Of a stretch of DNA of 64,000 nucleotides, positions 10,669 to 61,110 are shown one piece after another. This stretch comes from Ostreococcus lucimarinus (Eukaryota). The stretch is from NCBI GenBank assembly GCA_000092065.1, contig CP000581.1; one strand, given 5' to 3'. Within the stretch, counting starts at the first letter, position 1; the number at the start of each line of letters is the position of its first letter. The notes under the pieces are model-generated. The model ran no database searches. It was not told the DNA's origin and saw nothing but the letters and a program-made list of their open reading frames with translations. Made by a program: the position numbers and the translations under genes.

Positions 10669-10783
10669 TCTAGGAAAGCGAGCGTGAGTGGCGTCGCCAG
10701 ATGGTCCGCGAGTTGAGAGATTGTGATGATTATCTACTACTTATAGCTAAAAACGTGCGCCGATATCCACGCATGGACTAAGC

Positions 10784-11722: not shown

Positions 11723-11821
11723 CGCGCGCGTGCGTATGTTGTTGCTGGCGCTCTCTCACAGTGACAACGCCCTACGGGCTAGAGATATTTTGGTTGACCA
11801 AAATATTTTGGTTGACGCGGC

Positions 11822-32614: not shown

Positions 32615-34123
32615 CTAAATGAGCGCATCGACGCCGTTTCCAAGCTCGTCGTCCGCGGCGACGTCGACGAGGAGGCGAGAGGCGAGATCGTCGTCGTCGT
32701 CGAACGCCGAAGCGCCTCGAATGTGCTTCGAGCGCGCGATTTCCGTCGGCCAATCGATGCAGAGCGCGACGCGAGTCATGATGCCAGCGTGCGTGGCGGT
32801 ACCGACGACACCTCCGATGGCCAAACCCATGGCACCGTAGCCCTTGTACGCGAGCCAAGCGCTCAGGGGCAAGCCGACGACGTAATACGCGAAGAGCACG
32901 ATGGGAGTGGCAAACGCTTGACGTCCGGCGCCTCGCAGAACGCTCGTGCTGACGCAACACACGGCGTCGAAAAAGACGTAGAAAGCGAGTGGAACCATCA
33001 GTTTCGATACGAGCGCGCGAACGTCATGGTCAGACGTGAACGCGGCGCCCCATCGCTCGCGCGAGAGATACACCGTCGCGGAAACCGCGACTTCGACGAC
33101 GACGATCAAGCGCAACGCCACGGATGCGGCGAGCTTTGCGCGCGACGCATCTTTCGCGCCAACCTCGTTCGAAACTCGCGTCGCCGTCGCGGCGCCGAAA
33201 CCAACGGCCACCATGAACGCGAACGCGTTCGTCGCCTGGTAAATCGACATCGCCGAAATCGCGACGCTCGGATTTCGCAATTTCCCCGCCGCGAGCACGA
33301 TGAACTCGCTCGCCCACCACTCGCTCATTAACAAAACTCCGGGCACGCCCAGCTTCAGAAACAACACCAACCCCTCGCGGTCGAACATCGTCCTAAAGCA
33401 CACCCTCGACGCGCACGCGTCTCTGCGCTCCGCCAAAGCCTCGTCGCGTTCGCGAAACCATCCGTTCCGATTTCTTCTCAACCGCGCGTACGTCGCGTTC
33501 GCCGCGAACACCAAACTCGTGCTCACGCTCGTCGCGTACGCCGGCCCGACCGCACCGAACCCCATCCTTCGAAAGCACAGGCACGCCGGCGCGTGTAACG
33601 CCGTCGCCGCGACGCCCGCGCACGCGATGGGCCGCGTCGACCCCTGCGCCTGCAACCACGCCTGCGCGCACGCGTTCGCCGCGTACGCGAACAACCCCGG
33701 GCGCAATCCGCGCAAGTACGCCGCGCAGCTCCTCGCGATCGCCGCGTCGAAATGCCACGCCGACAGCCCCCCCTCGACGAACCGCCAGCCGATCGCCGTC
33801 GCCGTCGCCGTCGCCGCGCAGCACGCGAGCGCGCGCTGCGCCCACGCCCACGCCTCGCCGCCGCGCCCCTGACCGTACGCCTGCCCCCCCAGCGTCACCA
33901 GCGCGCTCACCAGCCCCACGACGACGGCGTTTCCCGTGACGTTCGCGATCGTGCTCGCGAGCGCCGCCCCCGCGAGCTCCGCCGTCGTCGCCGCGTCCGC
34001 GCCGACGAAGCCGAGCGAGATCAAGTCCCGCGCGCGGTTGCACAGCGACGCCAGCGTCACGGGCACCGCCAGCGCGACGTGCGCGCGCGCCTCCGCCGCG
34101 GCGCCGTCGACGTCGACGCCCAT
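32615..34123 (-). CDS. MATE-family efflux transporter (multidrug and toxic compound extrusion, DTX-like)
   Basis: 12-TM protein with MATE-typical segments (...AVCCVSTSVLRGAGRQ..., GLPLSAWLAYKGYGAMGLAIGGVVGTATHAGIM). First real ATG at 34123; the track start at 34150 is a TTG. Confidence 0.8.
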   Translation of the reverse strand: MGVDVDGAAAEARAHVALAVPVTLASLCNRARDLISLGFVGADAATTAELAGAALASTIANVTGNAVVVGLVSALVTLGGQAYGQGRGGEAWAWAQRALACCAATATATAIGWRFVEGGLSAWHFDAAIARSCAAYLRGLRPGLFAYAANACAQAWLQAQGSTRPIACAGVAATALHAPACLCFRRMGFGAVGPAYATSVSTSLVFAANATYARLRRNRNGWFRERDEALAERRDACASRVCFRTMFDREGLVLFLKLGVPGVLLMSEWWASEFIVLAAGKLRNPSVAISAMSIYQATNAFAFMVAVGFGAATATRVSNEVGAKDASRAKLAASVALRLIVVVEVAVSATVYLSRERWGAAFTSDHDVRALVSKLMVPLAFYVFFDAVCCVSTSVLRGAGRQAFATPIVLFAYYVVGLPLSAWLAYKGYGAMGLAIGGVVGTATHAGIMTRVALCIDWPTEIARSKHIRGASAFDDDDDLASRLLVDVAADDELGNGVDALI

Positions 34124-34336
34124 CGTCACCGCGCGCGCGCGTGTGCGCAAACAGTGACGCGATGTTTACGGACGGCGACTCGCAAACACCCGGGTGTGAG
34201 GGGGGGGGACGAAACGAGACGTCGAACGCATCGACGACGCGCAATCGTCGACGCGCGCGACCGAACGAACGCGCGAACGCGCGAACGCGCGCGCGCGAAG
34301 ACGGACGGACGCGAACGCGGGGCGTCGACGCGCGCG

Positions 34337-36124
34337 ATGCATCTCAGGGCGCTCGCGATCGACGCGCTCGGACTCGTCGCGCCGCGATCGGTGGCGATTC
34401 AGGATTGGCGATTGCTGATTTCGTTGCAGGCGCTGCGGGGACTGGTGGCGTTTTACGTGCTGTACTCGCTGATCAACGGGAAGACGTACCTGCAGCAAGA
34501 GGTGCCGCACGGAACGATATCGAACATCGGGACGTCGACGGAGTATTTCGATGGACTCGTGGATAAGCACGCGTTTCACGCGCCGGGCGACGGCGCGACG
34601 ACGACGGTGACGGCGTCGAACGGGGTCTCGCGAACGTTTGATTTGATGCCGTGCAGCGATGCGACGGCGATCGACGCGGCGTACAAGTTTAATCGGTCGT
34701 TTGGGTTCGAGTTCGATCACTTGATGTGCGCGTTTCTCGACTCGGACGAACTCGTGAGGGAGTTCCCGAGCGGCGGGATTTTCGTCACGACGCACGTGTA
34801 CTACAAACTCGTCTACCGAAATTACCTCTCCGGCGGTTCGGCCGCGACGTGCGCGGCGGATACCTCGGGTCTCACGGTCGGGAGTAACCCGATCTTCACG
34901 AACGAAGGCGTACCTCTTACGGTCCCTTTGCGGAAAAAGCTCGGCGACGTCTGTTACTACTCCAAGGAGTTTTCGTACCTACCGGTCGCGCCCGAGGCCA
35001 TAGAAATCAGGATTGATCACACGTACGACACCGCTTCGGGCGTAAAAGCCGGCACGAATCCTCCGGTTTACGTTCGACGCGCTGGAAGCGACGTGGACAT
35101 CAAGACATTCGCCGCCGGCGAGTCTGTCCGTCTCACCGTGGAAGAGATTCTCGAAGCCGTCGGCGTCGATTTGGACAAGCGTTACGCCGAAATCGATTCC
35201 GTGAATGAGTTGTTCGGCCAAGGAGTCGATGCTGCGAACACTCCAAAAATCAGGACGGGCGGTATGCGCGTCATCGCCAAGATGCTCTACTACAACTACA
35301 ACCTCGACGGCAAAAGAAGCGCGACGGGCTCTCACGAACCGTACGCCGTGCTCGAGTTGACTCCTCGCCTGGCGTGGACAACTTTGGGCCAAGACGTCAC
35401 TCATCGCGTTCCCAGCGAAGGTGAGCTCGCAGAACCCGTGAGTTTCGGCAGCGGGAACTCGGGACGACCGAAAGATAATTACTATTCCGACTGGGAACGT
35501 TACGGTATTTACGTGGAAGTTTCCTCCGCCGGCATCATCGCCACCTTCAACTTGGTGTACTTTGTGAATGTGCTCGTTTCGGGTCTCGTGCTCTTCGGCG
35601 TGTCCCAGATCCTGTGCATCCTCATGGCGACAACGTGCTTTGGCGCGAGATCGAAGATGTATTCTCGCATGCTGTACGAGCGCACGCACTTTGAACGCAA
35701 CATCGCAGCCTACGGCGTTCAAGCAATCATCGCCGCTCAAATATTCAAGAACAGCGGCAAAACCGACGCGCTCACGGTCGATGATCTCACCGACCTACTC
35801 GAGTCGGCGTTCTCCCAATCGAAGGATGCGGAGAAGGGTGCAAACGTCGTCGTCGATGCGAAGCGTGCGTTTTCGCGCGACGAGTTGAAGCAAATGGCGT
35901 ACTACATCATTCGCTCCGGCAACTTTGAAGCGGTCGAGAAATACACAGAAAAACGCCTTCACCTCGGCGTCGACGAAGTCCACGACAAGACGATCAACAT
36001 GAACGAGTTCATCGATCTCGCCACCAGCGGCGCGATCGACGTCCCGCTCGTCAAGTCTATAATCCACTCCAACGGAGTTGGCCAAATCGAGGACTCGACG
36101 CCGTCGCCAGCCGCGGCGGCGTGA
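34337..36124 (+). CDS. two-TM membrane protein with large extracytoplasmic domain, possible P2X-like trimeric channel fold (low confidence)
   Basis: TM1 about residues 25-50, followed by NGKTYLQ (compare P2X YEKGYQ). About 440-aa ectodomain. TM2 YGIYVEVSSAGIIATFNLVYFVNVLVSGLVLFGVSQILCILMAT resembles P2X pre-TM2/TM2 (YGIRFDI..GKAGKFDIIPT.INIGSGLALLG.ATVLCD). It lacks the canonical ATP-binding KxKG/NFR motifs and the 10-Cys pattern. The track ORF from 33752 is antisense to MATE upstream of the ATG at 34337. Confidence 0.55.
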   Translation: MHLRALAIDALGLVAPRSVAIQDWRLLISLQALRGLVAFYVLYSLINGKTYLQQEVPHGTISNIGTSTEYFDGLVDKHAFHAPGDGATTTVTASNGVSRTFDLMPCSDATAIDAAYKFNRSFGFEFDHLMCAFLDSDELVREFPSGGIFVTTHVYYKLVYRNYLSGGSAATCAADTSGLTVGSNPIFTNEGVPLTVPLRKKLGDVCYYSKEFSYLPVAPEAIEIRIDHTYDTASGVKAGTNPPVYVRRAGSDVDIKTFAAGESVRLTVEEILEAVGVDLDKRYAEIDSVNELFGQGVDAANTPKIRTGGMRVIAKMLYYNYNLDGKRSATGSHEPYAVLELTPRLAWTTLGQDVTHRVPSEGELAEPVSFGSGNSGRPKDNYYSDWERYGIYVEVSSAGIIATFNLVYFVNVLVSGLVLFGVSQILCILMATTCFGARSKMYSRMLYERTHFERNIAAYGVQAIIAAQIFKNSGKTDALTVDDLTDLLESAFSQSKDAEKGANVVVDAKRAFSRDELKQMAYYIIRSGNFEAVEKYTEKRLHLGVDEVHDKTINMNEFIDLATSGAIDVPLVKSIIHSNGVGQIEDSTPSPAAAA

Positions 36125-36337: not shown

Positions 36338-37468
36338 ATGTTCGCGCGCGCGCGCGCGGCACCGCGCGGCGACGTCGTCGTCGTCGTCGATCGCGCGGTG
36401 CGAACGACGCGACGACCGGCGTCGATTCGCGCGGCGAGCGGCGACGCGAACGCGATGGCCCCGTCGACGATTTTAGTCAACGACGCGAATGGACTGAGAA
36501 TCCCGCGCGTCGGGCTGGGAACGTGGAAAGCGCGCCCGAACGAGGTGCGCGATGCGGTGCGCGATGCGCTCGGGGCGGGGTACGCGCACGTCGATTGCGC
36601 GGCGGCGTACGCGAACGAGAGCGAAGTCGGCGAGGCGCTGCGAGAGGCGTTCGAGCGCGGCGACGCGAAGAGAGAAGACGTCTTCGTGACGAGCAAACTG
36701 TGGAACGATCGACGACGGCCGAGGGACGTTCGAGAGGCGTTGATGACGACGCTGAACGATTTAGGGGTGGGATATTTGGATTTGTACCTGATTCATTGGC
36801 CGGTGGCGTGGAAACGAGGCACCGTGCTGCAGCCAGACGCGGAGGCGTCCATCGCGGAGTGCTGGAGCGAGCTCGAACGGTGCGTCGCAGACGGGTTGGT
36901 ACGACACATTGGAGTGAGTAATTTTAACGAAGCGCAGCTCGCCGCGTTGTGTGATGATCCCAGGACGAAGATCCAGCCGGCGTGTAACCAAATCGAGTCG
37001 CATCCACTGTGGAGCAACGACTCGTTGGTCAAGTATTCGCAGTCGAAAGGGTTGACTGTGACGGCGTATTCGCCCTTGGCGCAGGGAGGGGAGTTGTTTG
37101 AGAACGAAATTCTCGTTGGATTGGCGAAAAAGTACGGTGTGACCCCGGCGCAGGTGGTGCTGAGGTGGAACGTGCAGCGCGACGTCGTCGTCATTCCCAA
37201 GTCGACTTCGGCGAAGCGCATCGCGAGCAACGCTGATTTGTTCGGCTTCGAACTGAGCGACGAAGACATGGATGCGATGAAGGTATTAGACGTCATGAAG
37301 AGCTGCGCGACGGCGCCATGGAGCGAATTCGCACCCGTTGCGTCTAGAAATAGATTTCTTCGCCCGCTCGGTCGCGCGATCTCATGGTTGCCTTTCAAGT
37401 TTATCGCAATGGACGTGCAACGCATGGGTCGAAGCGGATTCATTTCGTTGAGGGCGCCTTGGAAGTAA
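36338..37468 (+). CDS. aldo-keto reductase (AKR superfamily, aldose-reductase-like) with N- and C-terminal extensions
   Basis: RVGLGTWKARPNEVRDAVRDALGAGYAHVDCAAAYANESEVGEAL...DVFVTSKLWN...LDLYLIHWP...QVVLRWNVQRDVVVIPKS are AKR hallmark segments. Real ATG. Confidence 0.85.
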   Translation: MFARARAAPRGDVVVVVDRAVRTTRRPASIRAASGDANAMAPSTILVNDANGLRIPRVGLGTWKARPNEVRDAVRDALGAGYAHVDCAAAYANESEVGEALREAFERGDAKREDVFVTSKLWNDRRRPRDVREALMTTLNDLGVGYLDLYLIHWPVAWKRGTVLQPDAEASIAECWSELERCVADGLVRHIGVSNFNEAQLAALCDDPRTKIQPACNQIESHPLWSNDSLVKYSQSKGLTVTAYSPLAQGGELFENEILVGLAKKYGVTPAQVVLRWNVQRDVVVIPKSTSAKRIASNADLFGFELSDEDMDAMKVLDVMKSCATAPWSEFAPVASRNRFLRPLGRAISWLPFKFIAMDVQRMGRSGFISLRAPWK

Positions 37469-38467: not shown

Positions 38468-39373
38468 ATGACGCCCGCGCGACGGCGGCGCGTCGTCGTG
38501 TTCGGAGACTCGCTCACGCAGCGTTCGTTCGAGCCGCACGGGTTCGGCGCGGCGCTGGTGCGCGACGGCGACGCGAAGACGATGGATTCGAACGCGCGAT
38601 GTCGCGACGACGACGCGCGCGACGACTGACGCGCGCGACGACGACGGCAGGCGAATCGGTACGCGCGCACGTGCGATGTGTTCAATCGCGGGTACGGGGG
38701 GTACAACTCGCGATGGTGCGCGCGCGAGGACGTCCTGGACGGGGCGTTCGCGGCGGACGCGCGGCGCGAGGGGCGGACGTTTCTGGCGACGGTGATGCTG
38801 GGGACGAACGACGCGACGCGAATGCGCGACGCGACGGCGGAGCGAACGAACAGGGTGAGGGTGGAGTTGGAGGAGTACGCGAAAAACATGCGAACGATCA
38901 TCGCGCGGGCGGTGGAGACGTCGGAGATCGTGGTGGCGATGACGCCGCCGGCGGTGGACGAACGACGACGCGTCGAGGCGCAACGCGAAAGATGGGGGGA
39001 GGACTGGGTCGGAGGACCGTTCGAGGATCATCGACCGGACGTCGAGGCGTACGGGAAGGCGCTCGTGGACGTGGTGCGCGAATTTCAGGAACGTCGACAT
39101 CGCGTCTACGCGTTGGATTTGTACGCGGAGACGCGCGCGGCGATGGAGCGCGGCGCGGTTTTGTTTGAAGACGGCGTGCACTTCGGCGAGGACGGACAAC
39201 GATTCGTGACGGAGAAGTTATTTCAAGTTTTAGATAGTTTGGATGCGGATCCTTCGGTGCCAGACTTTCCGTACGGGCACGAGATTCGAAACCCAGAGCG
39301 TGCGGCGATGAGCGCGGAAGAAGTGTTTGACGATCACGAAGCGAGACGTCCGAAAGAAGCGCTGGAACCTTGA
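38468..39373 (+). CDS. IAH1: SGNH/GDSL hydrolase, isoamyl acetate-hydrolysing esterase IAH1-like. Two exons: join(38468..38557,38651..39373)
   Basis: Exon 1 (MTPARRRRVVVFGDSLTQRSFEPHGFGAAL, GDS(L) motif, donor GTGCGC). Exon 2 (ANRYARTCDVFNRGYGGYNSRWC...GTNDA...DGVHFGEDG). The join reproduces IAH1 [41 protein letters not shown]. The two halves are in different frames in the ORF track (38036..38629 and 38678..39373). Confidence 0.8.
38558..38650 (+). other. inferred intron of IAH1-like esterase (93 nt, GTGCGC...CAG)
   Basis: Phase-0 splice joins the GDS block to the CDV.NRG..GY.TRW block. Confidence 0.7.
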
Positions 39374-39474: not shown

Positions 39475-42282
39475 TTACGACTCGTCGGCGCTGTCTTCGA
39501 CCGATCTCATGATCACGCCTTCTTCGACCGAGATGACGTCTTCAAACTTCGGTCGCGTGTTCTCCGGTGCTTTCGCTTGGACCTGCTGCTCAATCACGTC
39601 GGTTTTATCGTTCACCTCCGGGGCGTTCGTCTTGAGAACGCGAGCACGCACCTCCTTGGGCGCGCGTTCAACTTTTTTCACCTTCTTCGTCGCGAGAGTC
39701 GCGAGATTCGCGCGCTTGTCCGATCGCTTCATCATCTTGAGCGTATCCGCCATGAGCGCGACGTGCAAGCCATCCGTAGCGGCCATTTTCATGAGTCGTC
39801 CCTTTCCAGGATCGTGCGCCAAGTGATTCGCCGCGACCTGTCGGGACGTCGGCGTGCGGTAATAACGGCCATCCGAGCCCATTTCCCACGCGAGCACTTG
39901 GTCCGTCAAGCACGCGTCGAGGACTTCTTGTAACTCGGTTTGGATCTTCGGATCGTACACACGCGTGATGACCTCGACGCGTCGAAGTAGATTACGACGC
40001 ATCAAATCCGCGGACCCCATGTAGAACTCGGGTGATCCGTTGTTTTCAAATCGGAACACGCGGTGATGCTCGAGAAAACGCCCGACAATGGAGACGACTC
40101 GAATGTTTTCTGAGACGCCGGGGATGCCCGGTCTAACGCGGCAGATGCCTCGAATGATGAGATGAATCTTCACACCTGCCTGCGAAGCGCGATACAGCGC
40201 GGCGCATATTACCGCGTCGTCAAGGCCATTCATTTTAGCGATGATGGACGCCGGCTTTCCTTTGAGAGCGTTCTCTGCTTCGCGTTCAATCATCTCCACG
40301 AATTCATTTTGCATGCGCAACGGGGCGACGATGAGCTTGTTGAACCGTTCTTGGTAGTGATGGCCCATGAGAAACTTGAACAAGTTACTCACATCATCGC
40401 CAAGCTGGTCGTCACGCGACAACAAACCGAAATCCGTGTAGATACCCGCCGTCGATGGGTTGTAGTTGCCGGTACCGATGTGCACGTACTTGACCAACTT
40501 TTTACCTTCGCGACGCACGACAAGCGACGCCTTCGAGTGCGTCTTGACCCCCTTGACACCGTACGCAACGTTGCATCCGGCGGTTTCTAAGCGCTGCGCA
40601 AAACCCACGTTTCTTGCTTCGTCGAAACGCGCCTTGAGCTCGACGAGCACGGCTACTTGCTTACCGTTTTCAGCCGCCTTGATCAAGGCTCTGACGATGG
40701 GCGAATTGTCGCTCGTGCGATAAAGCGTAGACTTGATTGAAAGCACATCCGGATCTCGCGCGGCTTCTTCGATGAACGCCTGCGTTGATGTAGCGAAAGA
40801 GACGTACGGGTGATGCACGAGGATGTCTCCCTCAGAAATCGCGCTGAAAATGGTGCCTTCGCTTCCGCGAATTTGTTCCAAACGTGGATGCGTTCGCGGC
40901 GACCACGGTGGGTAAAGCATCTCGATATCCATGCCAAAATTTACCGGTAATGAATCGATTGTACCGAAACCGAGTGGCGCGCGATGAGGTACGGTAATGA
41001 CGTCCGTGAGCGTGATGCCGTCGAGAGAGTCGATCAATTTATCTCGAATGTACTCGGGCATCGTGTCCTGGACTTCGAGGCGAACAAAAGACGCAAACCG
41101 ACGCTCTCGCACCTCGTCTGCCATCATCTCGAGCAAATCTTCGGCTTCGTCTTCATTACGCTCTATGTCGGCATTGCGCGTGACGCGAAACACGTGCGTA
41201 TCACGAATATTGCATCCTCTGAAGAGTTTCTCCATGTTCGCTTCGATAAGCTGCTCGAGCGGCAAAAATCGCTGTTCGCTGGAATCTTTGCTATCGCCGA
41301 CTCGAATCCAACGCTCGAGCGCGGCGGGAACGCTCACGATGGCAAACTTTTCCTGCTTGAACGCATCTTCGAGTTCGACCGCGATGGAAAGCGAGAGGGA
41401 ACCGAGAAACGGAAACGGGTGGCACGGATCTATGGCGCGAGGATCGAGCACCGGTTCGATTTGAGCCTCGAAATAGTCTCCGAGTTTCGTTCTCAAGTCC
41501 TTACTCAGATCATCGTATTGCTCCAAGTAGATATTGTGCGCCTTCAAAGCTGGAACGATGTGATCCTCCAACAAAGCCGCTTGTGCGTCCACTTGTCGCT
41601 CCACCTCCGCCGCGACGTTTTGCAACGTCTCCTGCGGCGTCCACACCTCCCGTCCGCGCTGCTTTACCAAGTTCTCCAAACCCGCCGCCGCCTGTCGCTT
41701 GATCGCGCCGACGCGCTTCGCGAAGAACTCATCCAGATTTCTCGCGCTGATCGCCACGAATCGCAACCTTTCAAATATCGGCACCTCTTCGTTCGCCGCC
41801 ATCGCGAGCACTCGCCAGTTAAACGCCAACCACGACATCTCCGCGTTAAACACCGGATCGCTCTTCACCAGCGTCTCCACGTCGTACTCGCTCAGCGCAT
41901 CCTTATCTTCCTCCATTCCTTCCTGCGCGAACGGCGGCGTCACCGTGCGCATGGCGGCGATCGATTCGTTGAACACGTCTCGCAGCTCTCGCGCGTCGAC
42001 GACGCTCTTCTCGTGCAATTCTTCACCATTCGCGGCGATCGCTCGCGTCTCCCCTCGCACCGCGCGCTTGCTCCCTCGACGCACCGCCGCGACGCGCCCA
42101 CCGCTCGCGCGCGCGTCGCCCGCCGCGCTCGCGCGCGCGTCGCGTCGCACGAAGACGATCTCGCGCGCGACCTCGTCGCGTCGACAGTTCGTCGAAACGA
42201 CGCCTCGTCGCGCGCGCGCGCCCGGCGTCGCGCGCGCGCGCGGCGCGCCCGGCGTCGCGCGCGCGACGACGCTCGCGCGCAT
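39475..42282 (-). CDS. ppk1: polyphosphate kinase 1 (PPK1, bacterial-type) with about 100-aa Arg/Ala-rich organellar presequence and C-terminal extension
   Basis: FNAEMSWLAFNWRVLAMAANEEVPIFERLRFVAISARNLDEFFAKRVG matches the PPK1 N-domain. Autophosphorylation motif DILVHHPYVSFATS. Two PLD-like C-terminal domains (HSKASLVVRREG..., VHIGTGNYN). Real ATG at 42282. Confidence 0.85.
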   Translation of the reverse strand: MRASVVARATPGAPRARATPGARARRGVVSTNCRRDEVAREIVFVRRDARASAAGDARASGGRVAAVRRGSKRAVRGETRAIAANGEELHEKSVVDARELRDVFNESIAAMRTVTPPFAQEGMEEDKDALSEYDVETLVKSDPVFNAEMSWLAFNWRVLAMAANEEVPIFERLRFVAISARNLDEFFAKRVGAIKRQAAAGLENLVKQRGREVWTPQETLQNVAAEVERQVDAQAALLEDHIVPALKAHNIYLEQYDDLSKDLRTKLGDYFEAQIEPVLDPRAIDPCHPFPFLGSLSLSIAVELEDAFKQEKFAIVSVPAALERWIRVGDSKDSSEQRFLPLEQLIEANMEKLFRGCNIRDTHVFRVTRNADIERNEDEAEDLLEMMADEVRERRFASFVRLEVQDTMPEYIRDKLIDSLDGITLTDVITVPHRAPLGFGTIDSLPVNFGMDIEMLYPPWSPRTHPRLEQIRGSEGTIFSAISEGDILVHHPYVSFATSTQAFIEEAARDPDVLSIKSTLYRTSDNSPIVRALIKAAENGKQVAVLVELKARFDEARNVGFAQRLETAGCNVAYGVKGVKTHSKASLVVRREGKKLVKYVHIGTGNYNPSTAGIYTDFGLLSRDDQLGDDVSNLFKFLMGHHYQERFNKLIVAPLRMQNEFVEMIEREAENALKGKPASIIAKMNGLDDAVICAALYRASQAGVKIHLIIRGICRVRPGIPGVSENIRVVSIVGRFLEHHRVFRFENNGSPEFYMGSADLMRRNLLRRVEVITRVYDPKIQTELQEVLDACLTDQVLAWEMGSDGRYYRTPTSRQVAANHLAHDPGKGRLMKMAATDGLHVALMADTLKMMKRSDKRANLATLATKKVKKVERAPKEVRARVLKTNAPEVNDKTDVIEQQVQAKAPENTRPKFEDVISVEEGVIMRSVEDSADES

Positions 42283-42485
42283 CGCTCGCGTCGCCGCGGC
42301 GTCGCGGCGCGCGTCACCGCGGCGTCGAAGAATGCCATCGCGTCGAATCCGCGTCGGCGCGTCCGCGACGCCGCAGTGACGCGCGCGGGGCGGCTTCGCG
42401 CGCGCGCGCGCGCGCGCCGGTCGAGCGTCGCGCGACGCGCGTCGCGCTCGACGCCGACGCGGATTCGACGCGCGCGGCGCGCGAG

Positions 42486-44186
42486 ATGCCGCGCGCGAGG
42501 GCGAAAGACGGCGCGCGCGTCGTTCGCGCGATTTCGACGGCGCGCGACGCGGCGCGCGACGCGCGCGCGCGCGCGCGCGATGGACGACGATGGACGTCGA
42601 CGCGCGCGCGCGCGGGCGCGGAGGCGTCGACGTCGGCGCTCGGGAGCGGGCTGGACTTTCGAGCGCTGACGCGCGCGGGCGAGACGGCGAGCGCGGCGTA
42701 CGCGAGGCTGTGCGCCGAGGGCGTCGTGCGCGAAGACGAGGCGCAGAGACACGCGCTGAAAGCGCTGGACGTCGTCGGAGGGCGCGCGAGAGGGACGCGG
42801 CGGAGGGAAGGACTCGGCGCGGTGGGCGCGGGGGGAGGGTGGTCGTTCGCGGGGTGGCTCGGCGGCGACGCGAGCGCGAAACGCGAGGTCGAAGCCGGAG
42901 AGGGGGGGGCGTACGTGCACGGGGGACCGGGAAGCGGGAAAACGTTTGTGATGGATTTGTTTTACGCCACGCTGGACGGTGAACACGGCGTGGAGAAGCG
43001 TCGGGAGCATTTTCACTCGTTTATGCTCGAGACGCACACGCAGTTGCACAAGTTGAAGGACTCGGATAAGAACATGGACACCGTGGGTCAATACGCGTCG
43101 GCGTTGGCGAGAAAGATGCGCGTGCTGTGCTTGGACGAGTTTCAAATCGTCGACGTCGCGGACGCGATGATCATCAAGCGTCTGCTGGAAAATCTCTGGG
43201 CCGAGGGCGTGCTGGTGGTGACGACGAGCAACAGACATCCGGATGAGTTGTACAAGAATGGGTTGAATCGCGCGCAGTTTTTGCCGTGCATAGCGGAAAT
43301 TAAAAGACGATGCATCGTGCACGAGATGGCGAGCGATCGCGATTATCGTCTCACTGGACGCGCACGGAGTGAGGAGGACCAAGCGATGTGGAAATCCGGC
43401 GGCGACGAAGCCGAGCGCGAGCGTTGGCTGGTCGAACGCTTGCAAGTGCTCGCGGGCGAGCGCTCGTTCAAACCGCTACAAATAGCGATCGGTGGACGCC
43501 TCGTGCACGTCCGGCGCGCGGGTGGTGGCATCGCTCACTTTGATTTTAACGAGTTGTGTGACAGCGCTCTGGGCGCCGCCGATTACACCGCCCTCGCGAG
43601 CATCTTCAACTCCATAGGCGTCGGGCACGTGCCGACTTTGAGCTCAGACAGACTCGATCTGGTGCGAAGATTCATTACATTCATAGATGTCATGTACGAG
43701 CATAAGGTGAAACTCCTCGTGAGTGCGGATGCGTCGCCTGAAGAGCTGTACCGCGCGAGCGCCGGCGACGGATCTCGCAAAAACGCCGCCCGCGACGAAG
43801 AGTTCGCGTGGGACCGCGCAGCGAGTCGACTCGCGGAGATGCAGTCGAAAGAGTTTCAAGAGGCACCTTGGAATCCAAAAGCTGGGAGCTGGTTGCTCGA
43901 ACAGGCGCGCGTCACCGAAGTCGTTCCAGCGCAGGTTCTGCGCTCCTTGTGGCAACGCTACGACCGCAACCGAGACAACGTTTTGGACGAAACCGAGCTC
44001 GAGTGTTTGGTGGGCGACTTGAACCAGCTGCGAAGTGGACACAGGCACGTGTCCGAAGAACAATTAGACGCCGTGATGTCCATCGTGCGTGGATCGAAAA
44101 ATTTGCGCGAAAATCGATACATGACGTACGAAGAATTCACGCGATACGGGCACGCCGCCATGCTCGAATGCATGCGCGACCGCTAG
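42486..44186 (+). CDS. AFG1: AFG1-like ATPase (AFG1/ZapE/LACE1 family) with presequence and C-terminal EF-hand-like extension
   Basis: Walker A YVHGGPGSGKTFVMDLFY, Walker B RVLCLDEFQIVDVADAMIIKRL, sensor VTTSNRHPDELY. C-terminal DRNRDNVLDETELECLVGDL fits the 12-residue EF-hand loop pattern. Confidence 0.8.
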   Translation: MPRARAKDGARVVRAISTARDAARDARARARDGRRWTSTRARAGAEASTSALGSGLDFRALTRAGETASAAYARLCAEGVVREDEAQRHALKALDVVGGRARGTRRREGLGAVGAGGGWSFAGWLGGDASAKREVEAGEGGAYVHGGPGSGKTFVMDLFYATLDGEHGVEKRREHFHSFMLETHTQLHKLKDSDKNMDTVGQYASALARKMRVLCLDEFQIVDVADAMIIKRLLENLWAEGVLVVTTSNRHPDELYKNGLNRAQFLPCIAEIKRRCIVHEMASDRDYRLTGRARSEEDQAMWKSGGDEAERERWLVERLQVLAGERSFKPLQIAIGGRLVHVRRAGGGIAHFDFNELCDSALGAADYTALASIFNSIGVGHVPTLSSDRLDLVRRFITFIDVMYEHKVKLLVSADASPEELYRASAGDGSRKNAARDEEFAWDRAASRLAEMQSKEFQEAPWNPKAGSWLLEQARVTEVVPAQVLRSLWQRYDRNRDNVLDETELECLVGDLNQLRSGHRHVSEEQLDAVMSIVRGSKNLRENRYMTYEEFTRYGHAAMLECMRDR

Positions 44187-47279: not shown

Positions 47280-50200
47280 TTACTTGTCCTCGTTCGACAT
47301 GTCGAGGAGCTGCGTGAAATAATCCACCGCGCTGGCTGCGGTTTTCTTCGTTTCGTTGGTGTTTGTCTTGCGCGTGATGACGCTGCGCAGGGATGAAATG
47401 GTCATCGATTTGACGACGTCTTCGGCTTCGACGTCTTGAACCGAAATACCCATGGACTCGGCGTATTTGGATTTGAGATCGTCGAGTTCGCCGGCCACTT
47501 TTTTGGACTCTTCGAGAACCTTGAGTTCTTCATCGCTCAGGTTCACAAAGTCGCGGAGACGCTTTTTGGCCTCGTCGAGGGAAACGCGGAGGCGCTTGAT
47601 CTCCACGGCGTACTCATCGCGTTCGGTTGCCGTCTGCTCAAACGAACGTTCGAGCGCAAGTCTGTCGGCCTCGAGCTGCTTTTCTCGATCGGAGACGCTA
47701 AGCCTGAGGCTCTTTTCGGCTTTAGACTTTTCTTCCGCGACGATTTTGAGCGCTTTTTCGCGACTCGCTTTGAGCGCCGCGTCCTTCGCCGCGATGGTGT
47801 CTCTCAGTCGTGCCTCGTACGATTCGCGAAGCTTGGCGATATCGATCTCGCTTCGCTCGCGAAGTTCCTTGAGACTCGCTTGAGTTTTGGCTATCTCTTC
47901 GGCGTAAGCGTCAGCGTCGCCACGTCTGCCGGTCGAGGTCGCAACTTCCTTCTCAACAATCTTTTCAACCTCAACAATCTTCTCGACGACCTTCTCGACT
48001 ATTTGCGGCGGTCCGCCTGTTTGCCCGGCGCGCTTTTCCGCGTCGCGCACAGCCCGTTGAAGCGTTTCAACTTCTTGACGGAAGTCTACGACTAGCTTAT
48101 CAAACTGCGCGTTGAATTTGGCTTCAATTTCCAGATCACGATCGTTGAGCATGTTTTCAAAGTTGGCAATTTTGGCCTTGAGTTTATCATTCGCCTTCTT
48201 CGCCGTCGCACGAAGCGCCGCTTCAGATTTTGAGCGTTCGGCGGCGGCGATGGCCAATTGATCGCGCAACGCCTTCTTCGCTGTGGTTTCCGCCTCTCTC
48301 AGAGCCGCGATATATTCACGCTGTGCCGCGAGCTTGGCACTCTCGGTGAGCTTCTTTGCCGCCGCGATTTCAGTGCGCAAAGTCTTTTCCATACGGTCGC
48401 GCTCCGCCTTCGCAGCTTCCATCGCGGACGCCAACTTCTGGTTCGCAATCTTCTCAGAGTTTGCGAGCTGATTTTCGAGTGTAGAAACTTTGGATTCCAA
48501 AGCCTTAAGCTTTGATTCGGATTCGATGCGCATTGCTTTCTCTACCGCCTCGATTTCAGCCTTTTGTGCCGTCTTAAATTCGCTCAGTTTCTTCACGGCG
48601 GCTTCAAGATCACGCTCGAGCGTCGCAACCTTGCTAGGCGATTGAGCGGGCTTGCTCTTCTGTATGACTGACTCCGTCGGTGTAGACGCGTTCGTCTCCT
48701 TCATCGAGCGATTCGACGCGCCGAAGAGACGTTCAAAGAGCGAAGGCGCGGAAGTCTTCGCCGCTTCTTCAGCCGCCAACGCCGCTTCTTCAGCCGCCAA
48801 CGCCGCATCTTCCTTCGCTTTCGTAGCTTCTTCCTTCGCTGCAAGCAACTGATCGCGCAAAGTAACCATTTCACTTTGCGCCGCACGAAGCTTACGCTCG
48901 GCGTCTTCGCGCGCGGCTCGTTCAGCTGCAACCTTGCCTTTGTTGAATTCAAAGAGAGGGCGCTGAACGGAGGTTTCCGATACCACCTTCGATGACGAAG
49001 ATTGCTTCTTTGCGACATCGAGTTCATCAGTGAGTGCACCAACGCGTTGCTCATAAAAGGCGATCTTCTCTGCGAGAGTTACTTGCTCGGATTTCAATCT
49101 TCGCTCGAAGTCTTCCTTCATCAAAAGCATCGAACGGGACCATTTCGCCTCCGCTTCGGCAAACTCGGCCTGAACACTCGCAAGTCGATACTGGACATTC
49201 TCCATTTTCTTCGCCTGTTCCGCATAATCCCTGTGCGCACGTCTGATTTGCTTCTCAAGTTCGCGTTCGCGTGACTTGAGTTGCTTGTTCATTAGCTGCG
49301 CCGAGTCTCGTACGCGTTCTTTGAAGTCTTCGCGCAACGCGGCGAGAAGAACTTCAACCTCTCGCGTGTGCTCCTTGCTTTCTTGAATCTTTTGGTTGAA
49401 TTCTAAAGTAGCATCAGCCATTGTTTGAGCGACAGCGCGAACGATCTCGTCATTGTGCTTTTCCTTCATCGCGTTCATTTCAGAAATTCTAGAACCCAAC
49501 ATCGCCTGACTATTTTGATACTTGACCAAAATATCTGCTCGTTCGGATTCAAGACTGCGCACATTCGCTTCGTCGGCCTGAACACTCGCAAGTCGATACT
49601 GGACATTCTCCATTTTCTTCGCCTGTTCCGCATAATCCCTGTGCGCACGTCTGATTTGCTTCTCAAGTTCGCGTTCGCGTGACTTGAGTTGCTTGTTCAT
49701 TAGCTGCGCCGAGTCTCGCACGCGTTCTTTGAAGTCTTCGCGCAACGCGGCGAGAAGAACTTCAACCTCTCGCGTGTGCTCCTTGCTTTCTTGAATCTTT
49801 TGGTTGAATTCTAAAGTAGCATCAGCCGTTGTTTGAGCGACAGCGCGAACGATCTCGTCATTGTGCTTTTCCTTCATCGCGTTCATTTCAGAAATTCTAG
49901 AACCCAACATCGCCTGACTATTTTGATACTTGACCAAAATATCTGCTCGTTCGGATTCAAGACTGCGCACATTCGCTTCGTACGACTTTGCTTGATCTTT
50001 CCAAGCAACGGAGTCGAATTGCCATGCGTCACGTTCTTGCTCCAACTTGGCCATTTTACGAAGCATTTGTGCGACGGCAGCAGTCATCTCGTCATCCTCA
50101 TCAAACGACGCCGAGGCGTTTTCGGTAAGTCGCGCCAAATCGAGCGCATACTTTGTCTCTGCGTCGGCAACCGCACGTTCTCGCTCTTCGTTCAGGCGCG

Positions 50201-53200
50201 CCACGGTTACCGCGAGCTGTTCTTGAGCATCAGCTTGGAGCTTGGCGATGGCTGCGACGGTATCATCGCCGCTTTTAAGCTTGGACTCAAGCTCGGAGAT
50301 GCGTTGCTTGTACTCTTTGACAGTGGTTTCACTCTCGGCGGCAAAAGTAGAAGATGCGTTACTGACGGCGTCCTTCAACTCTGCTTTGAGTGCCGCGATT
50401 TCATTCGCTGAAGCTGAACTTTTTTGTTCAAACTCCAATGTCAGACGCGATATTTCCTCACGAAGCTTGACTTCGCGCTCTTGCGCATCGCGTGCTTCAG
50501 TCTCTGCAGCTGATAACAGCACAGTTTGATCTTTGATCTGAGCATTTACAGCATCAAGGGACGCGTCCTGTCCCTGGGAAGCGCCGATGATGCTAGCAAA
50601 AATTCCACCTCGATCGCCTTTCGCCTTGTCCAAAACAGCCTTGTATTTCTCTTCAGCCTTTTGCATGCCCTTGCGAGCTTTTTCTAGTTCCTTTTCTAGT
50701 CGTCGCTCGGAATCCAGCTTCTCAGACTGTAGTCTTGTCGTGACCGATAGCACATCTTGATCACGCTCAGCGCGGACGGCTTTGATTTGCGCTTCCAAGT
50801 CGAAGATATGCTTTTCCACGTCCGGGCTGCTCCTCTTAGCTTGCGTAGCGAACTCCGCTTCAAGTTTCTCAAGCTTTTCTTGAAGCGCGTCGCGCTGCTT
50901 CTTGAGACGCTTGACTTCGCCAGTGCTTCCCTCGAACTTGTACGTGACAGATTGGGGAAGGGTGTACTTAACTACACTCTTCTCACGCTTTTGCTGTTGT
51001 TTGCGTTTAAACGCATCCAACTCCTTGCGAGCCTCAGTGACTTCAAGCCTGAGCTCTGCTTCCGTCTCCGTCGCCGTGCGCTTGAGAGTCTTATTGAGCT
51101 TCTTTATCGTCGATTCGTAACCTTCGGAAACCTCTTCTAGTTGAAGTTCCAGTCGCTTGACTGTCGCCTCGTACTCCGCGGCGATTTCATCAGCCTGTAT
51201 CTTCGCAGACCTCTCAACTTCTTCGAGTTTTGCTTTCCACAAGTCCTCAGCTTGCTTTACCTTTGTAGTTTCATCGCTCGCGAGAGAAGTTTTCATGGCG
51301 TTTTGCAGGGTCTCGATCTCGAGAGTCTGAGCCGTGATCAGCGCCTCTTTTTCTTCTTGGAAGAGCTTTGACTCCTGCGATACGCGGTCATCCGCTTCCG
51401 ACTTGACCAAAGCAACCAACGCTACTCGATCAGCCTCCGCTGACGCCTGAATTTCAGCGACGGCTTGGATAAGCTCTCGTTCGGCGCTTTCGTTGGCATC
51501 GGCGAGTTGCTTCTTCAGAGCTGCAACTTGGTCATCAATCGTAGCGGTCTCTGTGTCCGTTTTCGACGTCGATTTCATGTTCGCGATAGTTTGCTCGTAG
51601 AGCCGCTTGGACTTTTGCATCTCGTCAAGTTGGGATTCAAGGCGTGTGACTTGCGCTTGAAGCGCGTCGCGCTCCTTCTCTAGCGATGCATCTACCTTGT
51701 TGCCAGTAAACTTATATGTCACTGTTTGAGGCAGCGTGTACTTGATGCCACCCTTACTTTTTTGCTTGAGGTCTTCGAGGTCCTTTTTCGTCGATTCGAC
51801 TCGTTTTCTAAGTTCACTTTCGCTAGACTTAGATGCTGCGAGCTGCGCTTTAATTTTCTTCATCTCATCGTCGTCACTCGACACCCACGCAGTAGAAGAT
51901 TGAAGCGCATCAATTTTACCTTGATACTCTTGCTTCAACCGATCAATCTGTGCATCCTTGGCTGCTTCGACCTCACGAATCTTCTGTTCCCAGAAAATAG
52001 ATGATTGAGCCTCGGCAGTGGCTACCTCAGCCGTGAACTCAACCATAGCGTCTGCGGACTGTTTTATCGCTTCGTTTCGCATCATCGCATACAGCGCGCG
52101 GCGCTCGCCAGCGCTTGAACGAGACGAAGCGTCGCGTTGCGCCAGCTCGGAAGACGCAAAGGCCTGAATACTAGCGACGGCCTCGACGAGATGCTCCTCG
52201 GCGATGGCTTTTTGCTCTTGCAAACGCCACGACTGCTCAGACAGCTGCTTCTTGAGATCCAGGATCATGGCATCCTTCGCCGCTGACTCGTCGCTCCCAG
52301 CGGTCGTCGCCGCGGGCACGGCGGGCGCCGCGCGTGCAGACGCCTTGAGTGACTCAATCTTCGCGTCATACTCTCGCTTGGTCTTCTGCATTTCCGTCAG
52401 CTGCGACTCGAGCGCGCTGATCTTGGCCTGCTGAGCCTTCATCAGCTTGTCGTCCGTGGAACCGCCCTCGAATGTGTACTTGATAAACTGCGGAAGTGTG
52501 TACTTCACACCGTTCTTCGACGCAGTCTTGAGCGACTGAAGTTCGGCTTTCGCCGCGTCGACTTGACCTCGGAGTTCGAGTTCGATCGACGAGCGCTTGG
52601 AGAGCTGCGCCTGCAGGTCGGACACGACGCTCGAGAGACCATCACTACCAGACGCCTTGGACATTGATGCCTTGAGCTCCTCGAGTTCACGCAGCGATGC
52701 GTCGAGCTGCGCCTTCTCGGCCGCCGCCGCCGCTTGCAGCTTGGCATTATCAGCGAGGATCGTCGCGACAGCCGCCTCAACTTGCTCTTCGGCATCGTTT
52801 TCGGCATCCTGCAGCTTCTTGTTGAGGGCGTCGATTTCGGCGCTTCTGTCAGAAACACCGGTCGTAGTGCTCGCCTTACTGGCCGCCCGGACTCGTTCGA
52901 TCTCTTCGTTGTGTGCCTTCTTCAGAGCAACCACGCGCTGCTCAAACTGAATCTGCGCGTCACGAATGGCGTCGTTCACTTGAGCGCTCGTGTCCACAGG
53001 TGAACCGGACGACGCGCGCAATGACGCCTCCAGCTGTTCGTTCTCAGCCTTGAGCTCAGCGACGGCCTCGACGAGCTGCTCCTCGGCGATGGCTTTTTGC
53101 TCTTGCAAACGCCACGACTGCTCAGACAGCTGCTTCTTGAGATCCAGGATCATGGCATCCTTCGCCGCTGACTCGTCGCTCCCAGCGGTCGTCGCCGCGG

Positions 53201-58797: not shown

Positions 58798-61110
58798 ATG
58801 GCGACGACGACGACGATGCGCGTCGCGGACGCGAGAGGCGCGATGACGCGAGGCGGCGCGCGATGCGCGCGACGCGCGACGGCGCGACGCGCGACGCGCG
58901 CGACGGCGCGACGCGCGACGGTGGCGAACGCGGGGCAGACGATGTACGATAAAATCATCGACGACCACCGCGTGCGAACGCAGGACGACGGGACGCTGCT
59001 GCTGTACATCGATCGACACATGATACACGAGGTGACGTCGCCGCAAGCGTTCGAGGGGCTGCGAACGGCGGGACGGGCGGTGCGACGACCGGATAACACG
59101 CTGGCGACGGTGGATCACAACGTGCCCACGAGCGACCGGAGCGGGTTCGAGAGCGCGGAGACGTTCATCAAGGAGATGGACTCTCGCGTGCAGGTGTTGC
59201 AGCTGGAGGAGAACGTGGAGGAGTTTGGGGTGACGTATTTCGGGATGGACGATAAGAGACAGGGGATCGTGCACATCATCGGACCGGAACAGGGGTTCAC
59301 GCTGCCGGGGACGACGGTGGTGTGCGGGGACTCGCACACGGCGACGCACGGCGCGTTCGGGGCGCTGGCGTTCGGAATCGGGACGAGCGAGGTCGAACAC
59401 GTGCTCGCGACGCAGACGTTGTTGCAAAAGCCGTCGAAGAATATGCGAATCACGATCGATGGGAAGCTCGGAGATGGGGTGACGAGTAAGGATATTATTT
59501 TGCACATCATCGGCGTCATCGGCACGGCGGGCGGAAACGGCTCCGTGATTGAATTCGCGGGCGAAGCCATTCGCTCGCTCTCCATGGAGGCGCGAATGAG
59601 TATTTGTAACATGGCCATTGAAGGTGGGGCGCGCGCGGGTATGATTGCCCCGGATGAGATCACGTTCGAGTACCTCAAGGGTCGTCCGATGTCGCCTCGA
59701 GGGGAGACGTGGAATCGCGCGGTCGAGTACTGGAAGTCTCTCGCCTCCGACGCGGATTCCAAGTACGATCGCGAGATCGTTATTCCGGCGTCCGATATCG
59801 AACCCACGGTGACTTGGGGGACGTCCCCGCAAGATGTCGTTGGGATTTCGGGCATCGTTCCCGATCCGAAGGACTTCGACGAGGCGCGCGGCAAGTCGAT
59901 GCAACGCGCGCTCGATTACATGGGTCTGACCCCGGGCACTAAGATGCAAGATGTCGTCGTCGACAAGGTGTTCGTCGGCTCGTGCACGAACGGTCGCATC
60001 GAAGACGTGCGCGCGGTCGCCGCGGTGGCCAAAGGTAGAAAGGTTGCCGACAACGTGTACGCCATGGTCGTCCCGGGTTCGGGCATCGTCAAGGAGCAAG
60101 CCGAAGCCGAAGGCTTGGACGTCATCCTCAAGGAAGCTGGCTTCGACTGGCGCGAGCCCGGTTGCTCGATGTGTTTGGCAATGAACCCGGATAAGTTGCT
60201 TCCGGGCGAACGCTGCGCGTCAACCTCCAACCGTAACTTTGAAGGTCGTCAAGGCAACGGCGGTCGCACGCACTTGATGTCGCCGGCGATGGCTGCCGCC
60301 GCGGCCATCACGGGTAAGCTTTGCGACGTCCGCACCCTCGGCTCTGGCGCTGTCTTGACCGGCGAAGATGCTCCGGGTAAGCTCGAAAGCAAGGACTTCT
60401 TATCGGACGCCTTGGTCACTTCCCCGCCGCCGCAAAAGAAGGACAACGGTCCGGCGGGCGCGGGCGGCATGGCCAAGTTTACCACCTTGAAGGGTGTAGC
60501 CGCGGCCATGGAACTTCAGAACATCGACACCGATATGATCATCCCCAAGCAATTCTTGAAGACGATCAAGCGCACCGGCCTCGGAGTCTCTGCGTTTTAC
60601 GAAATGCGTTACGACGAGCAAGGCGTCGAACGCCCGGATTTCGTGTTGAACAACGAGCCGTACCGCAACGCCTCCATTTTGGTCGCCGGTAACAATTTTG
60701 GTTGCGGGTCTTCTCGTGAGCACGCGCCGTGGGCGATTAATGACTTCGGCATTCGATGCATCATCTCCACCGCCTTTGCCGACATCTTCTTCAACAACTG
60801 CTTCAAGAACGCCATGTTGCCAATCGTTCTCGACGAAGCCACCGTGAACACGCTCATGGCGGACGCCAACGCCAAGCAAGAGCTCGAAATCGACTTGCCG
60901 AACCAAGTCGTCATTCGATCAAACGGCGAGAAGATTCCATTCGAAGTCGACGAGTTCCGCAAGCACTGCTTGATCAACGGCTTGGACGACATCGGCTTGA
61001 CGATGCAGCAAGACGCCGACATCGCCGCGTTCGAGGCCAAGCGCACCGAAAACTTCCCGTGGCTCAACGGCGCCGGCTACGTCCAAGGCAGCGCCACCCC
61101 GGCGCGTTAA
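58798..61110 (+). CDS. LEU1: 3-isopropylmalate dehydratase, fused large+small subunits (LeuC-LeuD, LEU1-type) with organellar presequence
   Basis: [11 protein letters not shown]...[21 protein letters not shown]...[33 protein letters not shown] (LeuC, aconitase-family Fe-S ligand region). C-terminal [35 protein letters not shown]...[23 protein letters not shown] (LeuD). Single ORF of 770 aa. Real ATG. Confidence 0.9.

Follow-up and report, generated by a model that had tools for sequence, protein, structure and literature searches.

The window analysed here is a 64,000-nucleotide stretch of Ostreococcus lucimarinus DNA (GenBank assembly GCA_000092065.1, contig CP000581.1), and the single, intronless open reading frame (ORF) that lies on its minus strand at 39475..42282 (935 codons plus stop, ATG start) is the nuclear gene for a bacterial-type polyphosphate kinase, PPK1, on chromosome 1 of this alga. 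The account that we consider probable, with good confidence in it as a whole, is that the gene encodes an old green-lineage PPK1 of bacterial ancestry, that the N-terminal extension of the protein is missing from the RefSeq model, and that the enzyme is plausibly imported into an organelle. The find is not new: RefSeq and UniProt have contained the gene from the release of the O. lucimarinus genome onward, and a 2013 paper already described it as a eukaryotic PPK1. Whitehead et al. (2013) counted A4RQI1 and Q01H21 among the few convincing eukaryotic PPK1s, described these genes as intronless and eukaryotic PPK1s as having long N-termini, and discussed horizontal transfer (PMC3680246), an account that later reviews repeat (PMC12526157). 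While the gene itself adds nothing new, its re-examination yields a start corrected by 122 codons, an old, vertically inherited eukaryotic clade whose nearest relatives in neighbor-joining (NJ) trees are Caldilineaceae-like bacteria rather than cyanobacteria, and a sharper question of where green-lineage PPK1 works.

The four Pfam domains of PPK1 occur in the order N, head, C1 and C2, and each profile is covered over nearly its full length. They are the N domain PP_kinase_N (PF13089, E 2.3e-30; residues 145-253, 41524..41850), the middle or head domain PP_kinase (PF02503, E 3.4e-52; residues 265-432, 40987..41490), the C1 PLD-like catalytic domain PP_kinase_C_1 (PF17941, E 8.7e-70; residues 478-642, 40357..40851) and the C2 PLD-like domain PP_kinase_C (PF13090, E 2.1e-65; residues 650-814, 39841..40335), all on the minus strand. 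PLDc_2 was also matched, and both NCBIfam models of the whole protein scored above their cutoffs (TIGR03705, 'polyphosphate kinase 1', 768.5 bits against 465.85; NF003921, 858.1 bits against 701). A Nudix domain found no Pfam match in the ORF at E <= 1e-3. The ORF matches the solved PPK1 structures of E. coli and Porphyromonas gingivalis with E ~1e-103, and its AlphaFold2 (AF2) model, with a mean predicted local distance difference test score (pLDDT) of 80.7 and a predicted template modelling (TM) score of 0.80, superposes on 1XDO, 2O8R and 9URJ with target-normalised TM scores of 0.84-0.88 (Foldseek E 1.6e-51 to 1XDO). The next-best fold matches after the PPK1 structures are PLD-family enzymes, which is consistent with the two PLD-like catalytic domains. 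In a database search the ORF matched a metagenome protein (P0001) at 100% identity, and the 90%-identity cluster of that protein includes O. lucimarinus CCE9901 XP_001415736.1 (UniProt A4RQI1). The initial annotation of this DNA, which described a complete PPK1 with an N domain and two PLD-like catalytic domains, is upheld on all of these points, and the gene is, by its sequence features, that of a full-length and catalytically intact enzyme.

The initial annotation placed the autophosphorylation histidine in the HHPY motif (residues 490-493, 40804-40815), and here it has to be corrected. Alignment to E. coli PPK (1XDO, chain index +1) pairs HHPY with YYPY and puts the E. coli phospho-histidine H435 at H582 (40537-40539), within 'GVKTHSK' (E. 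coli 'GLKIHAK'), the HxK motif of the C1 PLD-like domain, so that the phospho-site is the histidine of 'KTHSK'. In the same alignment, E. coli H454 corresponds to H601 (40480-40482) and E. coli H592 to H739 in the C2 domain (40066-40068). E. coli H435 is recorded as the PPK autophosphorylation site (PMC4400040), and its Mycobacterium tuberculosis counterpart, H491, has been shown experimentally to be a phospho-histidine (PMC3215733); the roles of the other catalytic and ATP- or phosphate-binding residues were taken from that M. tuberculosis mutagenesis study and mapped with an offset of 56. The three histidines, together with R522, R552, N606 and Y615 (the equivalents of E. coli R375, R405, N459 and Y468), are invariant in a 55-sequence alignment. 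Since the catalytic residues are all invariant, the enzyme looks fully competent, and we infer its activity on that basis. If it works as other members of the PPK1 family do, H582 would be autophosphorylated from ATP and the phosphate then handed to the growing polyphosphate (polyP) chain, which would lengthen within a tunnel built by the N, H, C1 and C2 domains in a reversible reaction.

Ahead of the N domain the ORF has 144 residues, as against 22-64 acidic residues in the nearest bacterial homologues, from which the extension is absent. The extension comprises a disordered head (residues 1 to ~87) and a conserved, folded block (~95-144). Codons 1-94 (42001..42282, minus strand) form the candidate organellar transit peptide; this segment is 21% Arg and 22% Ala, has a net charge of +13 and few acidic residues, and carries RAIAA (residues 80-84) just before an acidic run. 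AF2 assigns residues 1-87 a pLDDT below 50, predicting disorder, and folds the chain confidently from about residue 91, with a helix at 97-110. The pre-N block, codons 95-144 (41851..42000, minus strand; 'VDARELRDVFNESIAAMRTVTPPFAQEG...'), contains Met111 and Met123 and packs onto the core in the model. Thus, the Arg/Ala-rich, eukaryote-specific extension of about 100 residues that was reported initially has the composition ascribed to it and is missing from the nearest bacteria, and it proves to be made of two dissimilar parts. Comparable N-terminal extensions are carried by all of the Ostreococcus clades, and the junction of 'RAI[AST]' with an acidic run is found in most of them, although not in O. 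tauri.

What might the head be for? On balance, we favor the prediction from sequence that it is a cleavable organelle-import peptide, a reading in which we place modest confidence. The head is acid-poor, net positive, disordered and fast-evolving (five to six amino-acid polymorphisms among four variants of the same-species cluster, and none in the next 60 residues), and it ends, as a cleavable presequence might, at the conserved 'RAI[AST]' and acidic junction. In zygnematophyte orthologues the head runs to 60-100 residues or more and is Ser/Thr-rich, with little Arg and few acidic residues; these streptophyte heads resemble classical chloroplast transit peptides. The 'RAI[AST]' motif fits both the mitochondrial R-3 and the plastid V/I-x-A processing sites. 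The plastid is slightly favored over the mitochondrion as the destination; import into the plastid is put forward tentatively, and mitochondrial or dual targeting appears less likely.

Several observations weigh against import. The maximum 18-residue hydrophobic moment of the extension, 0.64, does not rise above that of shuffled sequences (0.57 +/- 0.10) and is uninformative about a helix of the mitochondrial type; the mitochondrial neighbor AFG1 gives 0.67. The extension is 77% GC with a GC content at second codon positions (GC2) of 0.68, like the 81%-GC intergenic DNA, and its richness in Arg and Ala could therefore partly reflect base composition. Moreover, Whitehead et al. found with TargetP no common targeting signal in eukaryotic PPK1s, and roles in membrane targeting or quaternary structure were proposed instead (PMC3680246). 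An alternative that draws on these observations is that the extension is no import signal and the enzyme is cytosolic or sits on membranes of the vacuole or acidocalcisome type, with the disordered head and the basic C-terminal helix serving regulation, oligomerisation, or membrane or polyP binding; a role of this kind has been proposed for the extended N-terminal region of PPK1 in Dictyostelium. It is general knowledge that algal polyP is usually stored in acidocalcisome-like vacuoles (reviewed in PMC7332688), which would suit such a location. We regard this alternative as unlikely, though it is the one that fares best among those considered here; against it stand the acid-poor, rapidly changing head, its presequence-like junction and the transit-peptide-like heads of the streptophyte orthologues. 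In addition, the earlier TargetP result is tied for O. lucimarinus to A4RQI1, the current record of which is an 813-residue model that lacks the extension, and that result thus does not settle whether green-lineage PPK1 has a role in an organelle. Our literature search for the localisation of any green-lineage PPK1 found nothing, and Abel and Naumann (2024) make no mention of PPK1.

If the head does direct import, PPK1 would make polyP inside the organelle from locally produced ATP, such that polyP synthesis would take place within an energy-converting organelle through an enzyme of bacterial ancestry. The organellar role would then have escaped notice because the presequence is absent from the public gene model of O. 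lucimarinus. A more far-reaching proposal, which we offer as speculation, is that PPK1 is imported into the chloroplast or mitochondrion in Ostreococcus and its green relatives, is the only polyP synthase of the alga, for which no SPX-VTC protein has been reported, and came from a Chloroflexota-like bacterium before chlorophytes and streptophytes split. O. tauri, which is transformable, is a host in which the organelle role can be tested.

Two neighboring genes have N-termini of related appearance. That of AFG1 (42486-42560, plus strand) is Arg/Ala-rich, with '...ARVVRAISTARD' and 'VVRAIS', and resembles the 'RAI[AST]' junction of PPK1; that of an aldo-keto reductase (36338-36460, plus strand) is likewise Arg/Ala-rich and has a similar motif in '...PASIRAASGD'. 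It may be that the RAI-type motif is a common presequence processing motif in O. lucimarinus.

The origin of the gene was examined with 156 PPK1s, made up of the 118 best database matches of at least 650 residues and 38 named bacterial PPK1s (12 of them cyanobacterial) from a scan of GTDB species genomes. NJ trees were computed from 662 well-aligned columns with 100 bootstraps under Kimura, gamma and Dayhoff-6 distances. Three groups each received a bootstrap value of 100: a eukaryotic clade of 40 sequences, a Caldilineaceae-like bacterial clade of 26 sequences, and the 12 cyanobacteria. The first two were joined with bootstrap values of 91 (Kimura), 94 (gamma) and 95 (Dayhoff-6). All named members of the eukaryotic clade are chlorophytes or streptophytes: 11 of its sequences come from Ostreococcus, Bathycoccus and their relatives, 10 are streptophytes (moss, Spirogloea, Closterium and related transcriptomes), and the clade also holds Mesostigma, a Pycnococcus/Tetraselmis group and further marine sequences. 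Three of the marine members lie on contigs with eukaryote-type genes.

One marine sequence is worth describing in its own right. A 50.7-kb contig of ENA ERZ27288542 (L082) encodes at 10001-12886 a divergent PPK1 of 961 residues (P0070) with a 217-residue N-terminal extension, which is a member of the Pycnococcus/Tetraselmis subgroup. Other contigs, also of about 50 kb, carry it again, the members of its cluster all come from ENA and Logan assemblies, and its neighbors are of eukaryotic type (an HA domain, protein kinases and an NDUFAF7-like protein); its host is a marine picoeukaryote.

The broad eukaryotic clade means that any transfer predates the split of chlorophytes and streptophytes and is not peculiar to the O. 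lucimarinus genome. The initial annotation leaned towards horizontal transfer and held that placement in a broad eukaryotic clade would speak against this. Such a placement is largely what the trees give, with a bootstrap value of 100, even if the clade in its entirety still traces back to bacteria. What stands of this reading is the bacterial ancestry of a gene that is uncommon in eukaryotes; what does not stand is a transfer more recent than the common ancestor of chlorophytes and streptophytes. That PPK1 is not a recent arrival in Ostreococcus, but an old gene of chlorophytes and streptophytes that was lost in many lineages, is a robust conclusion, and Whitehead et al. likewise considered an ancient gene later lost in many lineages to be the most parsimonious reading (PMC3680246). 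From the tree and the gene order, PPK1 would have come from a bacterium in a single acquisition that preceded the divergence of chlorophytes and streptophytes, and would then have been vertically inherited, adapted to the codon usage of its hosts and lost in many of their descendants.

Which bacteria supplied the gene is a separate matter. Whitehead et al. suggested that it came by endosymbiotic transfer from the cyanobacterium that gave rise to the plastid, as a Cyanothece PPK1 grouped with the eukaryotic sequences in their tree (PMC3680246). A plastid-type presequence would fit such an origin, cyanobacterial PPK1s can also be aligned to the pre-N block, starting at about residue 110, and one insertion of a single column is common to the eukaryotic clade and the cyanobacteria. 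In the trees presented here, however, the 12 cyanobacterial PPK1s form their own clade and joined the eukaryotic clade in 0 of 100 bootstraps (Dayhoff-6 run only), while the split that unites the eukaryotic and Caldilineaceae-like sequences was recovered at 91-95% under the three distance schemes; in addition, the mean identity of the eukaryotic clade is 55% to the Caldilineaceae-like group versus 49% to cyanobacteria. We therefore judge the endosymbiotic route improbable. The Caldilineaceae-like sister relationship is itself moderately supported, and some points count against it: it comes from distance trees only, a search for shared indels turned up none that supports the grouping (the eukaryotic clade has a few insertions of its own), the insertion shared with cyanobacteria points elsewhere, and the red-algal and amoebozoan PPK1s lie outside the tree data set.

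The corrected gene start bears on all that has been said of the head. RefSeq XP_001415736.1/A4RQI1 (813 residues) begins at Met123 of the ORF (MEEDKD...) and omits 122 codons (41914-42282, minus strand). If the protein did start there, the extension would be untranslated and its open frame an accident of GC-rich DNA; such DNA gives many long, spurious, Arg/Ala-rich ORFs in this region, the PPK1 frame stays open and ATG-free for more than 100 codons upstream of M1, and the extension resembles intergenic DNA in GC content. Nonetheless, a start at Met123 cannot be right, because residues 95-122 ('VDARELRDVFNESIAAMRTVTPPFAQEG'), which lie upstream of it, show strong conservation among the Ostreococcus clades and can still be recognised in Bathycoccus, because sister clades have Cys, Thr or Val in place of Met123 and Ile in place of Met111, because M1 is the sole in-frame ATG upstream of both, and because the extension is included in the complete ORFs of MMETSP transcripts from related species, as it is in the O. 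tauri model. The confident AF2 helix at residues 97-110 also argues for translation. An untranslated extension is accordingly very improbable; on these sequence grounds, the extension is real coding sequence, and the PPK1 model should be lengthened so that it begins with the ATG at 42282.

A recent, lineage-specific transfer into Ostreococcus might be suspected from an intronless gene whose bacterial homologues are about 50% identical and which most eukaryotes lack. Intronless genes are, however, the norm in the O. lucimarinus genome, the codon usage of PPK1 is fully adapted to the host, and gene order around it is kept between Ostreococcus species whose PPK1s share only 76% identity. Orthologues with the same additions are found, moreover, in Bathycoccus, Pycnococcus, Tetraselmis, Mesostigma, Zygnematophyceae and mosses, with a bootstrap value of 100 for the clade. 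We consider a recent transfer to be highly improbable.

The genomic context leads to a similar judgment on the assembly. PPK1 lies head-to-head with an AFG1-like ATPase that has a C-terminal EF-hand pair (42486..44186, plus strand; PF03969, E 6e-79; kept in O. tauri) and tail-to-tail with an intron-split GDSL esterase (38468..39373, plus strand; PF13472/PF00657 and frame analysis), from whose end at 39373 it is separated by 101 bp, so that the arrangement given in the initial annotation is accurate. The 203-bp divergent region between PPK1 and AFG1 (42283..42485, 81% GC) is, from its sequence and composition, presumed to be a bidirectional promoter. Frame analysis of the esterase gene indicates an intron of about 100 nucleotides with an in-frame stop. 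On O. tauri chromosome 1 the same order is found, namely AAA ATPase, 4HBT thioesterase, AFG1, PPK1, GDSL esterase, an intervening gene and aldo-keto reductase, and an independent environmental metagenome contig has PPK1 followed by the GDSL gene, one further gene and the aldo-keto reductase. This contig differs from the window at 2 of the 2808 nucleotides of the PPK1 coding sequence, too few for a ratio of nonsynonymous to synonymous substitution rates in the extension. Proteins of the PPK1 90% cluster occur on contigs of up to 120 kb, and the other genes of the window are eukaryotic (PSMD3/Rpn3, cytosolic RPL3, DENN-WD40, Brix, an ABC half-transporter, aconitase and a prenyltransferase alpha subunit).

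Composition was said initially to be indistinguishable from that of the neighbors, which holds for codon usage and not for GC content. In relative synonymous codon usage, PPK1 correlates with the genes of the window taken together at r = 0.94 over its whole length and at r = 0.89 over the core (other window genes, 0.58 to 0.94). The PPK1 core has a GC content of 54.6% and a GC content at third codon positions (GC3) of 0.66, compared with 61-65% and about 0.75 in the five flanking genes; it nevertheless lies inside the ranges of all window genes (GC 52-70%, GC3 0.62-0.82). Bacterial contamination or a chimeric contig, for which the bacterial affinity of the protein family and nothing else would speak, is very unlikely, to the point of being scarcely credible, because the gene order recurs in O. 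tauri and in the environmental contig, the neighbors are eukaryotic, the adjacent gene has an intron and the codon usage is that of the host, all in agreement with the initial view that the gene is no contaminant.

The C-terminal end of the protein also departs from the bacterial pattern. Bacterial PPK1s stop soon after the 'G(T/L)(Q/H)xxLM' helix, whereas proteins of the eukaryotic clade continue. In the algal protein the addition specific to the eukaryotic clade spans residues 816-870 (39673..39837, minus strand), as judged from the AF2 model and the orthologues, and consists of helices and a basic stretch ('MKRSDKRANLATLATKKVKK'); AF2 places helices at 811-823, 831-837 and 839-865, with block-mean pLDDT values of 69-94, followed by the basic stretch (KKVKKVERAPKEVRAR). 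A disordered end of mixed charge follows, residues 871-935 plus the stop (39475..39672, minus strand), in which pLDDT falls below 50 from residue 875 to 935. This end segment is confined to the Ostreococcus/Bathycoccus group and includes a conserved patch, 'RP(N/S/K)F..(V/I)I'. In streptophyte orthologues the corresponding position is taken by a shorter basic tail, 'AKKVxLKKKDGS', and bacteria have none. Residues 816-935 are 12% Lys versus 4% in the core, and the C-terminal tail was thus rightly described as Lys-rich. As to its role, we can offer guesses: polyP or membrane binding, or autoregulation of the polyP tunnel.

Several further features of the region were noted. An out-of-frame ATG at 42339-42341, 57 nucleotides upstream of the PPK1 start, is a possible upstream ORF if the 5' untranslated region extends that far. 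PHR1-type P1BS sites (GNATATNC) near PPK1 were considered and rejected, as the window contains four where about nine are expected by our own estimate and the site at 39392 lies downstream of the gene. Exon 1 of the GDSL esterase runs to about 38563 ('...FGDSLTQ...GAALVR') and exon 2 begins at about 38675 ('DVFNRGYGGY'), these splice sites being approximate; the O. tauri orthologue has 298 residues over 1000 nucleotides. A 790-residue ORF at 33752-36124 (plus strand), with two predicted membrane segments and a sub-threshold match to P2X ATP-gated channels (E 8.6e-4, residues 583-643), lies between a MatE gene (32615-34150, minus strand) and the aldo-keto reductase. Those two genes are directly adjacent in O. 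tauri, and a 595-residue gene is called at the position of this ORF on an environmental contig (L086). At 47280-58307 (minus strand) there is a 3675-residue ORF with no Pfam match, rich in Ala, Glu, Lys, Leu and Gln and coiled-coil-like, which explains the strong AT skew (~-0.24) and low GC content over 47-58 kb. Together with aconitase (58798-61110), it is flanked by the AAA ATPase on one side and by the Prx-Trx and prenyltransferase genes on the other, and the matching O. tauri stretch (L001) has no called gene of its size or family. The Prx-Trx gene (61241-62410, plus strand) encodes in one ORF a 2-Cys-type peroxiredoxin (AhpC-TSA and 1-cysPrx_C) fused to a C-terminal thioredoxin domain.

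The physiological setting of the enzyme can be approached through its relatives and through the distribution of VTC, the other route to polyP. The O. tauri protein ostta01g00620 has been detected by proteomics and was highlighted among those whose abundance shifts under phosphate deprivation (PMC7407893). Among the entries listed in the supplement of a survey of SPX proteins, O. lucimarinus is represented by one plain SPX protein, OSTLU_31447.SPX, and by no SPX-VTC, and Chlamydomonas by two SPX-VTC proteins (PMC8717665). As no SPX-VTC is reported there for O. lucimarinus, PPK1 is probably the main polyP synthase of this species; what tells against leaning on this is that the absence is taken from an incomplete table in the literature, not from a genome search, and is a weak indication. 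VTC4 is reported for Micromonas (PMC7332688), and among the best 120 matches to PPK1, where O. tauri appeared and Bathycoccus was named within a cluster, none was labelled Micromonas. A review states that the distributions of PPK1 and VTC4 scarcely overlap (PMC12526157). Taken together, these observations suggest that in Ostreococcus and Bathycoccus most polyP is made by PPK1. Within the Mamiellales, PPK1 (Ostreococcus, Bathycoccus) and VTC4 (Micromonas) may be reciprocally distributed. If so, the Mamiellales would constitute a natural system in which to compare the two routes of polyP synthesis, a comparison that matters for phosphorus cycling in oligotrophic seas.

Among known systems, the closest is O. 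lucimarinus XP_001415736.1/A4RQI1 itself, which is the same gene without the first 122 residues of its product, followed by ostta01g00620 of O. tauri (Q01H21), an orthologue that is 76% identical and has the same neighbors. PPK1s of Ceratodon and Physcomitrium, Closterium, Spirogloea, Mesostigma, Pycnococcus and Tetraselmis belong to the same clade (bootstrap value of 100), with identities of 50-58%. Long N-terminal extensions are present in most of the full-length models of these streptophyte and green-algal proteins, and in many of them a basic tail follows the 'GLHxALM' helix; the streptophyte heads are Ser/Thr-rich, whereas that of O. lucimarinus is Arg/Ala-rich, and the streptophyte tails are shorter. 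Streptophyte PPK1 genes are also intron-rich, with 21-22 introns in Physcomitrella (PMC3680246).

The closest bacterial relatives are PPK1s from metagenome-assembled genomes of Caldilineaceae (Chloroflexota) and related metagenome proteins (P0034-P0060), with 53-55% identity in the core. These proteins have 728-827 residues and lack both the basic N-terminal head and the basic C-terminal tail, although some of them share a hydrophobic-PP motif of the pre-N block with the algal protein. The structurally characterized PPK1s of E. coli (1XDO/1XDP; 9URI/9URJ/9UUH) and P. gingivalis (2O8R) are like the algal protein in their N-H-C1-C2 architecture, in the HxK phospho-histidine and in the conserved Arg, Asn and Tyr residues that bind ATP and phosphate. 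At about 30% identity, the algal protein differs from them by the addition of a disordered head of ~90 residues, a pre-N block of ~50 residues and a C-terminal extension of ~120 residues.

Bacterial-type PPK1s retained by other eukaryotes and implicated in polyP accumulation include the PPK1-Nudix fusion of Cyanidioschyzon merolae (Yagisawa et al. 2025, as cited in PMC12526157) and the PPK1 of Dictyostelium discoideum. Unlike the C. merolae fusion, O. lucimarinus PPK1 is without a Nudix domain, and in the 2013 tree the red-algal and amoebozoan PPK1s fell into separate groups (PMC3680246). Whereas Whitehead et al. favored a cyanobacterial link for the eukaryotic PPK1s and saw no targeting signal in them, the NJ trees presented here favor a Caldilineaceae-like sister group.

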